Origin: Escherichia coli
GTDB taxonomy: Bacteria > Pseudomonadota > Gammaproteobacteria > Enterobacterales > Enterobacteriaceae
Length of the DNA stretch: 64,000 bases
Strand: one strand, 5' to 3'
NCBI RefSeq assembly: GCF_044324875.1
Contig: NZ_CP172185.1
The notes beneath the pieces are model-generated. The model was not told the origin of the DNA. It saw nothing but the letters and a program-made list of their open reading frames with translations, and did not search any database. The translations under genes were made by a program, and so were the position numbers. Positions 17,798 through 54,631 of the stretch are shown here, piece by piece; position 1 is the first letter of the stretch; every line of letters starts with the position of its first letter.

Positions 17798-18832
17798 ATG
17801 GCTTACTCTGTTCAAAAGTCGCGCCTGGCAAAGGTTGCGGGTGTTTCGCTTGTTTTATTACTCGCTGCCTGTAGTTCTGACTCACGCTATAAGCGTCAGG
17901 TCAGTGGTGATGAAGCCTACCTGGAAGCGGCACCGCTTGCGGAGCTTCATGCCCCGGCTGGAATGATTTTGCCGGTGACCTCCGGTGATTATGCAATCCC
18001 GGTGACCAACGGTAGTGGTGCTGTCGGTAAGGCGCTGGACATTCGTCCACCAGCCCAGCCGCTGGCACTGGTTTCTGGCGCGCGTACCCAGTTCACGGGC
18101 GATACCGCTTCATTGCTGGTGGAAAATGGTCGTGGCAATACTCTGTGGCCGCAGGTGGTTAGCGTGCTGCAGGCGAAAAACTACACCATCACCCAACGTG
18201 ATGATGCTGGTCAGACACTGACCACCGATTGGGTACAATGGAACCGTCTGGACGAAGACGAGCAGTATCGTGGTCGTTATCAAATCTCTGTTAAGCCGCA
18301 GGGTTATCAGCAGGCGGTTACGGTTAAACTGCTGAACCTGGAACAGGCGGGCAAACCGGTTGCAGACGCGGCTTCCATGCAGCGTTACAGCACGGAGATG
18401 ATGAACGTTATTTCCGCCGGTCTGGATAAATCTGCCACTGACGCCGCGAACGCTGCGCAAAATCGTGCCTCCACCACTATGGACGTACAAAGTGCAGCTG
18501 ATGACACCGGTTTACCGATGCTGGTCGTACGCGGGCCGTTCAATGTGGTTTGGCAACGTCTGCCAGCGGCGCTGGAAAAAGTGGGCATGAAAGTGACCGA
18601 CAGCACCCGTTCGCAGGGCAACATGGCCGTAACTTATAAGCCGCTGTCTGACAGCGACTGGCAGGAACTGGGCGCGAGCGATCCAGGCCTGGCATCCGGT
18701 GACTATAAACTGCAGGTTGGCGATTTAGATAACCGCAGCAGCCTACAGTTCATCGATCCGAAAGGTCATACTCTGACTCAGAGTCAGAACGACGCGCTGG
18801 TAGCTGTCTTCCAGGCTGCGTTTAGCAAGTAA
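17798..18832 (+). CDS. bamC: Outer membrane protein assembly factor BamC (NlpB) lipoprotein
   Basis: 344 aa; lipobox LLAACSS after signal peptide; AGGGAG SD upstream of ATG 17798. Confidence 0.95.
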
Positions 18833-18840
18833 AAATACAG

Positions 18841-18865
18841 GGCTGGAGTCATCCGGCCCTTTTTT
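18841..18865 (+). terminator. Rho-independent terminator after bamC
   Basis: 7-bp stem ggctgga/tccggcc (one G-U pair), 4-nt loop, then TTTTTT. Confidence 0.6.
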
Positions 18866-18875
18866 CTGATATGAT

Positions 18876-18891
18876 ACGCAAACGTGTGCGT
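18876..18891 (+). promoter_or_regulatory. Candidate PurR operator (pur box) upstream of purC
   Basis: ACGCAAACGTGTGCGT, one mismatch to the palindromic pur box ACGCAAACGTTTGCGT. Confidence 0.5.
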
Positions 18892-19044
18892 CGGCAGGAA
18901 AACGCGATTTTAGCGGTAATTCGCACGAAATTTGTTTGTCGGACGTCGTTCGGATAAAGCGTTCTTGCCGCATCTGACAAAACATCCGGCACACCAGACA
19001 GCAAAAGATTTTAAAACGTTAATTCACACCCAGGAGTGATAAAG

Positions 19045-19758
19045 ATGCAAAAGCAAGCTGAGTTGTATCGTGGTAAAGCGAAAACCGTATACAGCACGGA
19101 AAACCCGGACCTGTTGGTGCTCGAATTCCGCAATGATACGTCAGCAGGGGATGGCGCGCGCATTGAGCAGTTTGATCGCAAAGGTATGGTGAACAACAAG
19201 TTCAACTACTTCATTATGAGCAAACTGGCTGAAGCGGGTATCCCGACTCAAATGGAGCGTCTGCTCTCCGATACCGAATGTCTGGTGAAAAAGCTGGATA
19301 TGGTGCCGGTTGAGTGTGTCGTGCGTAACCGTGCTGCTGGCTCTCTGGTAAAACGTCTTGGAATCGAAGAAGGTATTGAGCTGAACCCACCGCTGTTCGA
19401 TCTGTTCCTGAAAAACGACGCCATGCACGATCCGATGGTCAACGAATCTTACTGCGAAACCTTTGGCTGGGTGAGCAAAGAGAATCTGGCGCGTATGAAA
19501 GAGCTGACCTACAAAGCGAACGACGTGCTGAAAAAACTGTTCGATGATGCTGGTCTGATTTTGGTCGACTTTAAACTGGAGTTTGGCCTGTACAAAGGTG
19601 AAGTGGTACTGGGCGATGAGTTCTCCCCGGACGGCAGCCGCCTGTGGGACAAAGAAACGCTGGAGAAAATGGACAAAGACCGTTTCCGCCAGAGCCTCGG
19701 TGGCCTGATCGAAGCCTATGAAGCCGTCGCCCGCCGCCTGGGTGTACAGCTGGACTGA
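19045..19758 (+). CDS. purC: Phosphoribosylaminoimidazole-succinocarboxamide (SAICAR) synthase
   Basis: 237 aa from ATG 19045 ([22 protein letters not shown]...); CAGGAG SD. Confidence 0.96.
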
Positions 19759-19925
19759 TTTTTCTGTTCATCATCTTGCCGTGCAGCTGGCACGGCAAGA
19801 CAACCGCTCTCGGCAGATGTGCATTGAACGCTCATTCCTCCGCCATTTCATCCCGCTTTCCTGTGGTAATCTTCCTCTGAACCACCTACGATCATTTCTA
19901 TAATGAATATATTGTTGAGGTATCT

Positions 19926-20789
19926 ATGCGTTGGCAAGGGCGACGTGAAAGTGACAATGTTGAAGACAGGCGCAACAGCTCTGGTGGTCCGTCAATGGGC
20001 GGTCCAGGTTTTCGCCTGCCAAGCGGTAAAGGCGGGCTGATTTTACTGATAGTCGTGCTGGTTGCAGGCTACTATGGCGTTGATTTAACCGGGTTGATGA
20101 CCGGACAGCCGGTTTCCCAACAGCAATCAACACGGTCAATTAGTCCTAATGAAGACGAAGCCGCAAAATTCACTTCGGTGATTCTGGCAACCACGGAAGA
20201 CACCTGGGGACAGCAATTCGAGAAGATGGGTAAAACCTATCAGCAACCGAAGCTGGTCATGTACCGTGGAATGACGCGCACCGGCTGCGGGGCGGGCCAG
20301 TCCATTATGGGGCCGTTCTATTGCCCGGCGGATGGCACGGTTTATATCGATCTCTCTTTCTATGATGACATGAAAGACAAACTTGGCGCGGATGGCGATT
20401 TTGCCCAGGGGTACGTTATCGCCCATGAAGTCGGTCATCATGTGCAGAAACTGTTAGGCATCGAGCCGAAAGTTCGTCAACTGCAACAAAACGCGACGCA
20501 GGCGGAAGTGAACCGCTTATCTGTGCGTATGGAACTCCAGGCCGACTGTTTTGCCGGTGTCTGGGGGCATAGTATGCAGCAGCAAGGTGTTCTGGAAACC
20601 GGCGATCTGGAAGAGGCGCTGAACGCGGCGCAGGCCATCGGCGATGACCGTTTACAACAGCAAAGTCAGGGGCGAGTAGTACCAGACAGTTTCACTCATG
20701 GTACTTCTCAGCAACGCTACAGCTGGTTTAAACGTGGTTTCGACAGCGGCGATCCGGCACAATGCAATACTTTTGGTAAAAGCATTTAA
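19926..20789 (+). CDS. ypfJ: Putative zinc metalloprotease-like protein YpfJ
   Basis: 287 aa; N-terminal TM segment; HEVGHH zinc-binding motif. Confidence 0.9.
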
Positions 20790-25845: not shown

Positions 25846-25910
25846 TTCCTGAGACAAAGTACAAACAACAAGAACCTGCTGAGCAGGTTCTTAATCGGAA
25901 AGTTGAAAAG

Positions 25911-40564: not shown

Positions 40565-40597
40565 CGCTTACCCTGAATATTCAGGGTAAGCGGTTTT
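40565..40597 (+). terminator. Rho-independent terminator after maeB
   Basis: Perfect 12-bp stem cgcttaccctga/tcagggtaagcg, 4-nt loop, then GTTTTCC. Confidence 0.75.
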
Positions 40598-54586: not shown

Positions 54587-54598
54587 CCTGTCGGAGGT

Positions 54599-54622
54599 GC
54601 CGGGTGTCCTACAACACCCGGC
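54599..54622 (+). promoter_or_regulatory. Stem-loop in the eutK-eutR spacer
   Basis: Perfect 9-bp stem gccgggtgt/acacccggc with 6-nt loop, ending 10 nt before eutR ATG; flanked by direct cattaac repeats. Confidence 0.45.
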
Positions 54623-54631
54623 ATTAACATC

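Follow-up and report, generated by a model that had tools for sequence, protein, structure and literature searches.

Escherichia coli transcripts whose termination depends on Rho end precisely, just after stable stem-loops that carry no U-tract (Dar and Sorek 2018). Such stem-loops protect against PNPase and RNase II, a rut-like sequence with more C than G lies just downstream of them, and 3′ ends trimmed by exonucleases characteristically sit right at the base of the stem; the table of this class comprises 462 transcripts (Dar and Sorek 2018). The same authors advanced the idea that terminators drift between Rho-independent and Rho-dependent modes through the gain and loss of uridines. The hairpin that follows purC in E. 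coli resembles this class in being a stable stem-loop of terminator-like energy with neither a U-rich tail nor an upstream A-tract, in lying directly before a precise 3′ end (58 of 88 reads in M9), and in being followed by sequence enriched in C over G. The difference is that, for purC, we infer Rho dependence and trimming by PNPase and RNase II, as we do the stabilizing effect. Since every feature of the class that we examined is present at this locus, we rate Rho-dependent termination downstream of the hairpin, followed by trimming, as the most likely mechanism. We regard it as very likely that the hairpin sets the 3′ end of purC mRNA and protects it; that it is the 3′-terminal stem-loop of a message terminated by Rho farther downstream and then trimmed back seems to us probable, with appreciable room for doubt.

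Canonical intrinsic terminators, such as that of the neighboring bamC gene (18839–18860), are of comparable size and energy and have the same position after a stop codon. The purC hairpin differs from them in having no T-run (one T in 9 nt), and its transcript ends 1–2 nt after the stem, whereas the bamC transcript ends 5–6 nt after its own stem, in the T-run. Among the defining traits of a canonical terminator, then, purC has the G+C-rich stem-loop and lacks both the U-tract of 7–8 nt and an end within such a tract. With REP elements it has in common that it is an extragenic palindrome after a stop codon and that it would form a block to 3′–5′ exonucleases, but it is single-copy and does not resemble the REP consensus.

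Coordinates are given for the window, by which we mean the whole 64-kb stretch of DNA that was analyzed. The segment of interest belongs to the E. coli chromosome and carries dapA, bamC, purC, ypfJ, and tmcA in that order, all on the + strand. Between 18700 and 19930 it is colinear with K-12 MG1655 (21 substitutions, no indels); a K-12 position, on the minus strand of that genome, equals 2616663 minus the window position. The features to which we refer are the following.

18876–18891, + strand: PurR-box-like palindrome ACGCAAACGTGTGCGT, covering the purC start site
19045–19758, + strand: purC coding sequence, with its stop codon TGA at 19756–19758 (from the list of open reading frames and the RefSeq annotation of identical loci)
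19759–19773, + strand: T-rich spacer of 15 nt between the purC stop codon and the stem (from the sequence)
19774–19800, + strand: hairpin (from sequence, folding, and invariance in the population)
19774–19784, + strand: 5′ arm of the hairpin, TCTTGCCGTGC (from the sequence)
19785–19789, + strand: loop of the hairpin, AGCTG, 5 nt (from the sequence)
19790–19800, + strand: 3′ arm of the hairpin, GCACGGCAAGA (from the sequence)
19801–19802, + strand: 3′ end of the purC transcript (K-12 2596861 is 19802), a published steady-state end of primary transcripts
19801–19833, + strand: hypervariable stretch, matched by MAFFT to the ancestral hairpin as present in Salmonella and Citrobacter, its pairing lost
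19801–19899, + strand: C-rich, G-poor tract, a candidate rut region by its composition
19864–19891, + strand: ypfJ promoter block TGGTAATC-N-CCTACGATC, invariant in an 11-sequence alignment across genera
19898–19903, + strand: TATAAT, overlapping the mapped start at 19900
19926–20789, + strand: ypfJ coding sequence (from the list of open reading frames), into which read-through transcripts extend

The first-pass annotation, made from the sequence of the window, had described a perfect 10-bp stem with a 5-nt loop beginning at the 17th base after the purC stop codon. That stem is present, at 19775–19799, and forms the inner part of a perfect stem of 11 bp, 7 of which are G-C pairs and the outermost of which is T19774-A19800. 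Folded alone, the hairpin has a free energy of −20.1 kcal/mol, compared with −7.6 ± 2.1 kcal/mol for 200 dinucleotide shuffles (z = −6.0), none of which was as stable, and it appears in both the minimum-energy and the centroid folds of the entire purC-ypfJ spacer. A single T occurs in CAACCGCTC, the 9 nt that follow the stem, the sequence upstream of the stem, TTCATCA, holds no A-tract, and a terminator scan made no call at this position; the absence of a T-run had been noticed from the outset, and the judgment that this is not a canonical intrinsic terminator was correct. A scan of 18700–20100 with the Rfam covariance models, at E-values up to 10, returned no match in the purC-ypfJ spacer.

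Perfect stems of at least 10 bp with loops of 3–8 nt occur, by a script of our own, at four places in the 64-kb window; these correspond to 7 combinations of stem and loop against about 0.6 expected from first-order Markov simulations, roughly ten times expectation. A general inverted-repeat scan did not list the purC hairpin. The other three places are 25870–25892, 40565–40592, and 54598–54623, and the second of these is a 28-nt perfect palindrome, CGCTTACCCTGAATATTCAGGGTAAGCG. Two further identities for the purC hairpin were considered and rejected. A tandem duplication of the 3′ end of purC is hinted at by CAGCTGG at 19747–19753 and again at 19784–19790, but the match does not extend beyond this 7-mer; the two copies stand 37 nt apart, close to the excess of about 42 nt in the Escherichia spacer, probably by chance. 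A sigma-54 promoter might be suspected from TGGCACG in the 3′ arm, followed by GCAAGACA, but neither strand has a −12 TTGC.

Published data on primary transcripts place the end of purC mRNA at the foot of this stem, and so supply the 3′-end mapping that the first-pass annotation had named as a check. In SMRT-Cappable-seq of E. coli K-12 grown in M9 (Yan et al. 2018, Nat Commun 9:3676, PMC6131387), the purC transcript spans 2596861–2597781 on the reverse strand of NC_000913.3. The entry stands in Supplementary Data 1, sheet M9_TTS, where it is typed “novelTTS” and assigned to b2476, purC (PMC6131387); the 3′ end of purC is thus already public as a table row. It counts 88 reads at the start site and 58 at the termination site; 19 of the 88 go past the site, by a median of 1077 nt, and 8 of the 88 end no more than 50 bp downstream of it (PMC6131387). 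Position 2596861 is 19802 in the window, two bases after the last paired base, so that the mapped end sits 1–2 nt beyond the stem. The bamC end serves for calibration: it is given as 2597797 in the SMRT-Cappable-seq table and as 2597798–9 by Term-seq, that is, 1–2 nt lower in the former, and given this offset between the data sets the purC end could lie anywhere in 19801–19803, 1–3 nt after the stem. The method captures 5′-triphosphate transcripts and adds poly(A) tails to true RNA 3′ ends (PMC6131387). This design, together with a downstream sequence that is not rich in A, suggests that the end is an artifact neither of reverse transcription stops nor of internal priming. SMRT-Cappable-seq does not separate termination from 3′ processing, and its operon table lists purC-ypfJ transcripts that begin at the same purC start site as well as dapA-bamC-purC-ypfJ transcripts (PMC6131387).

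The purC end comes from one data set and one condition, M9, and the site occurs once in that supplementary file. Text searches of Yan et al. (2018; PMC6131387) found no discussion of the purC site, its missing U-tract, its conservation, or its mechanism. In the part of the Adams et al. (2021) Term-seq tables that was searched, bamC has a 3′ end and purC has none. The TERMITe supplements have no purC entry, and a literature search returned no bicyclomycin or pnp/rnb data for purC and nothing relevant on purC together with ypfJ. The conditions of the Term-seq study reportedly include LB, and PurR represses purC in rich medium; such repression would explain both why the purC end is missing from the Term-seq tables and why it occurs in the M9 sheet only, and the Term-seq negative is accordingly a weak one.

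The course of events that we propose is as follows. When the purC promoter is active, during purine limitation or in minimal medium, the transcript would fold, 15 nt beyond the stop codon, into the 11-bp stem, and RNA polymerase would pass the hairpin without stopping. Rho would load on the untranslated C-rich, G-poor spacer downstream and terminate transcription diffusely, PNPase and RNase II would trim the tail back to the stem, and the stem, by blocking these two enzymes, would stabilize purC mRNA. About two-thirds of the primary transcripts would in this way come to have their steady-state 3′ end 1–2 nt after the stem, and the rest would run on through ypfJ. What recommends Rho and trimming as the most likely mechanism is the combination of a missing U-tract with an end directly at the base of the stem and not 5–9 nt downstream of it. 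The ratio of C to G is 2.0–3.1 in windows of 60–80 nt across 19801–19899, and 19801–19880 ranks among the top 1.3% of 80-nt windows in the 64 kb, although the tract also contains the ypfJ promoters and its composition may therefore have another cause. The spacer is untranslated over about 125 nt, which would leave room for Rho to load. The first-pass annotation had offered a Rho-dependent or processing site among its possibilities, and the mapped end, the tract with more C than G, and the match to the class of Dar and Sorek (2018) speak for it, with the part of Rho itself presumed. Its other suggestion, a stabilizing 3′ stem-loop, has fared well: the 3′ end lies 1–2 nt after the stem, and the stem, which presumably stabilizes the message, is constant where the loop and the flank vary.

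The hairpin is real, functional, and under selection, and selection acts on the pairing. Of 5426 complete E. coli genomes, 3805 contain a 43-mer around it, each at exactly one place, and on account of this single copy we rejected a repeat family or REP element as its identity. Three variants that differ in the loop only, AGCTG (2072 genomes), TGCTG (1654), and TACTG (75), with identical arms in all three, make up 3801 of the 3805; the remaining 4 differ at one position, and in the one of these that was inspected, NCTC9066, the change G19790A opens the loop-closing pair only. Among eight diverse strains, none of the 22 stem sites is variable, compared with 14 of 53 neighboring sites in 19759–19833 (Fisher p = 0.007). 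Variation is concentrated in the hypervariable stretch 19801–19833, where 10 of 33 sites differ among the 8 strains, and is scarce in the ypfJ-proximal 92 nt, where 2 sites do. The stem is retained in E. albertii, in which one C-to-T change leaves a G-U pair and the loop differs, and in Escherichia sp. MOD1, again with a different loop. Conservation of the stem in close relatives, which the first-pass annotation had made a touchstone for the hairpin, is therefore borne out within Escherichia, but the sequence is absent outside that genus. Compensatory changes, also anticipated, do not occur within the E. coli stem itself because its arms are invariant; they are found outside Escherichia, where a different hairpin in the same slot covaries at 11 of 11 pairs.

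That slot was followed through a scan with YpfJ, at one genome per species, which yielded 80 purC-ypfJ loci from Enterobacteriaceae; E. fergusonii and E. marmotae are absent from the set. The synteny of purC and ypfJ is kept in nearly all 80, and almost everywhere a strong hairpin begins 8–25 nt after the purC stop codon. Over the 80 loci, the most stable 40-nt fold in the 90 nt that follow the stop codon averages −19.0 kcal/mol compared with −9.9 kcal/mol for shuffles; 73 of the 80 have a z below −2, and only 14 of 1200 shuffles were as good. Most genera have one homologous hairpin of the form CCRGAGRR...YYCTCYGG, exemplified by CCAGAGGATG in Kosakonia, GCCAAAGGAT in Enterobacter, CGCCAGAAGAT in Klebsiella, and CCGGAGAG in Citrobacter, and we refer to this hairpin as ancestral. 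In an alignment of 36 species, both sides change in 11 of its 11 pairs. In the same alignment 87.9% of cells are paired against 42–56% with slid partners, and none of 500 shuffles reaches the observed values; the alignment windows were centered on predicted hairpins, which inflates the percentage paired, and the slid-partner and shuffle controls still separate clearly from it.

The tail of the hairpin is less constant than its pairing. By our own script, which applies the criterion of the terminator tool, at least 5 T in the 8 nt after the stem are found in 33 of 80 loci and at least 6 T in 6 of 80. A canonical T-tract is found in Buttiauxella, Pseudenterobacter, RIT714, and Siccibacter; Enterobacter and Klebsiella have one with interruptions, and Escherichia (1–2 T in 9), the Citrobacter freundii group, Kosakonia, and Kluyvera cryocrescens have none. 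Downstream of the hairpin, C exceeds G in 73 of 76 species. In Kluyvera ascorbata, K. georgiana, and Klebsiella indica, the slot is filled instead by REP-like palindromes, GCCGGATAAGGCGTTTACGCCGCCATCCGGCA; we saw them in the first 80 nt past purC at loci L031, L034, and L042 (Kluyvera) and L087 (Klebsiella indica). Pairing that is kept while sequence turns over, and the substitution of REP elements, point to an RNA 3′-end structure and not to a sequence-specific protein site. The idea of a protein operator, raised in the first-pass annotation, is one that these comparisons speak against, through the pairing kept across genera while its sequence changes and the REP element in the Kluyvera slot.

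Two other accounts of the mapped end deserve weight. A cut by RNase E or RNase III in the spacer of a purC-ypfJ(-tmcA) co-transcript, with trimming back to the hairpin and no termination at this place, would agree with the existence of long dapA-bamC-purC-ypfJ and purC-ypfJ transcripts; here, too, the upstream fragment would be shielded by the hairpin, and SMRT-Cappable-seq is blind to the distinction between processing and termination. Yet only 19 of the 88 reads from the purC start pass the site, which would require very fast cleavage of most co-transcripts, no cleavage site in the spacer has been identified, and few termination sites overlap RNase III sites according to Yan et al. (PMC6131387), so that we consider processing of this kind unlikely. 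Alternatively, the hairpin might act by itself as a weak intrinsic (Rho-independent) terminator that releases the transcript 1–3 nt after the stem without any U-tract. The sharpness with which two-thirds of primary transcripts end at the stem, only 8 of 88 ending in the next 50 bp, could be read in this way, and the orthologous slot does hold a canonical hairpin with a T-run in Buttiauxella, Pseudenterobacter, RIT714, and Siccibacter. A U-rich tract is needed, however, for the polymerase to pause and for the hybrid to be weakened (Dar and Sorek 2018), and the 9 nt in question have one T; moreover, an end 1–2 nt after the stem is what is seen in exonuclease-trimmed ends, whereas that of the bamC control lies at 5–6 nt. 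We find such an intrinsic terminator quite unlikely here, and hold it very unlikely that purC has a true U-tract-independent intrinsic terminator in vivo, one at which two-thirds of transcripts stop with neither a U-run nor Rho.

The remaining accounts deny the hairpin a role in RNA. As a DNA element it could bind, as an operator, some dimeric regulator of ypfJ or purC, or it could be a target of recombination tied to the vapBC polymorphism described below; it is, after all, a perfect 11-bp inverted repeat with invariant arms, and it lies inside the 67-bp segment that is exchanged in the vapBC allele. What makes this most improbable is that pairing and not sequence is kept across genera, with 11 of 11 pairs covarying, and that REP elements stand in for the hairpin in Kluyvera. 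It also occurs once per genome, about 80–100 bp upstream of the ypfJ starts and about 890 bp downstream of the purC start, the vapBC cassette has no flanking integrase or repeat, the vapBC allele has a hairpin of its own outside the part shared with plasmids, and the stem coincides with a mapped RNA 3′ end. A functionless palindrome that arose by chance would agree with the want of compensatory changes in the E. coli stem, whose arms never vary, but it is scarcely credible in view of a z of −6 against shuffles, 0 of 22 stem sites variable beside a hypervariable flank, a perfect stem in 3801 of 3805 genomes, its retention in E. albertii and Escherichia sp. MOD1, and a transcript end at its foot. 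Rho-dependent termination downstream, with trimming back to the stem, stays the account that we prefer.

The history of the slot within Escherichia appears to have been one of replacement. The purC-ypfJ spacer measures 167 nt in Escherichia compared with about 120–130 nt elsewhere, and MAFFT treats the first 42 nt of the Escherichia spacer, with the whole hairpin included, as an insertion. The remnant of the ancestral hairpin can be placed in two ways, and its homology is ambiguous: by eye, CAACCGCTCTCGG (19802–19814) resembles the loop and 3′ arm of the Salmonella hairpin, CAACCGCTCTCCGG, and in the MAFFT alternative GAACGCTCA (19826–19834) is aligned with the ancestral 3′ arm. Under either alignment, the comparison suggests that the ancestral hairpin decayed in Escherichia and that a new, perfect one upstream replaced it. 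The stretch 19801–19833 would then probably be a neutral remnant of the ancestral purC hairpin.

E. coli itself carries two forms of the slot. In 1615 of the 5426 complete genomes (about 30%), the 67-bp segment 19767–19833 is swapped for about 830 bp that contain vapB and vapC with their own promoter (668–1500 of locus L001); together, the hairpin allele in 3805 genomes and the vapBC allele in 1615 account for 5420 of the 5426. The K-12-type hairpin is absent from the vapBC allele. Directly after purC, that allele has a different hairpin, TTAGCCGGAG-GGTA-CTCCGGCTAA, of the ancestral CCGGAG...CTCCGG type, with a partly T-rich tail and a 12-mer, CTTAGCCGGAGG, in common with Pseudescherichia vulneris. 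In no other species sampled was vapBC found in the purC-ypfJ spacer, and the cassette has neither a flanking integrase nor a flanking repeat. We considered whether this hairpin might be part of a mobile vapBC cassette and rejected the idea: plasmid vapBC, at about 78% identity, matches only 782–1444 of L001, and the hairpin, at about 689–712, falls outside that range.

The purC hairpin belongs with the U-less stem-loops already known to cap bacterial transcripts and is unremarkable among them; it is its evolutionary history that is instructive, above all the turnover of hairpins across genera and the two-allele state in E. coli. For E. coli, the analysis fills in an annotation, namely where purC mRNA ends, why, and at what rate transcription leaks into ypfJ-tmcA. 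In the one orthologous slot, a hairpin is constant in nearly all 80 loci, and its sequence, its T-tract, and its kind, REP or plain, turn over. E. coli retains two old alleles side by side, the novel U-less hairpin being found in one and an ancestral-type, partly T-tailed hairpin with vapBC in the other, and the slot with these alleles offers a natural test of the drift proposed by Dar and Sorek (2018). We suggest, tentatively and with more doubt than conviction, that the locus may record a natural, datable switch of terminator from intrinsic to Rho and trimming, in which a hairpin arose de novo within about 42 nt, the ancestral one decayed, and both states now segregate by way of the vapBC allele. 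Annotators should expect a transcript end where a gene is followed by a hairpin, even one that lacks a T-run.

Some observations concern the sequence upstream of purC. The bamC terminator is a canonical one, at 18839–18866, with a 9-bp stem and TTTTTT and a Term-seq 3′ end at K-12 2597798. Its published read-through into purC is 40% in M9 and 11% in rich medium, and purC is therefore transcribed from the dapA and bamC promoters as well. Just downstream lies the palindrome ACGCAAACGTGTGCGT, which we take to be a PurR box from its likeness to the consensus ACGCAAACGTTTGCGT. The purC start site that it covers is K-12 2597781, window 18882 (PMC6131387). The purC leader, which precedes the start codon at 19045, contains at about 18934–18995 a degenerate REP-like sequence, cggataaagcgttcttgccgcatctgacaaaacatccggca, for which the K-12 RefSeq record has no annotation.

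At the other end of the spacer, the first-pass annotation had pointed to a TATAAT ahead of ypfJ, at 19899–19904, as a −10 hexamer. The motif exists, one base away from that position, at 19898–19903, and is partly conserved, appearing as TATAAC, CATAAT, TATTAT, or TATTGA in other genera. It does not appear to serve as proposed. The ypfJ start sites map to K-12 2596784 and 2596763, window 19879 and 19900 (PMC6131387), and since the TATAAT overlaps the second of these it is not the −10 element of that start; there may conceivably be a third ypfJ start near 19910, which is absent from the SMRT-Cappable-seq data set. The mapped starts lie 8–9 nt downstream of GGTAAT (19865–19870, preceded by TGT) and TACGAT (19886–19891), respectively. 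Both hexamers are invariant in the 11-sequence alignment and are presumably the −10 elements. The promoter block to which they belong is also visible in the other spacers that we inspected. ypfJ codes for an uncharacterized zinc metallopeptidase, and such tight conservation of its promoter is notable.
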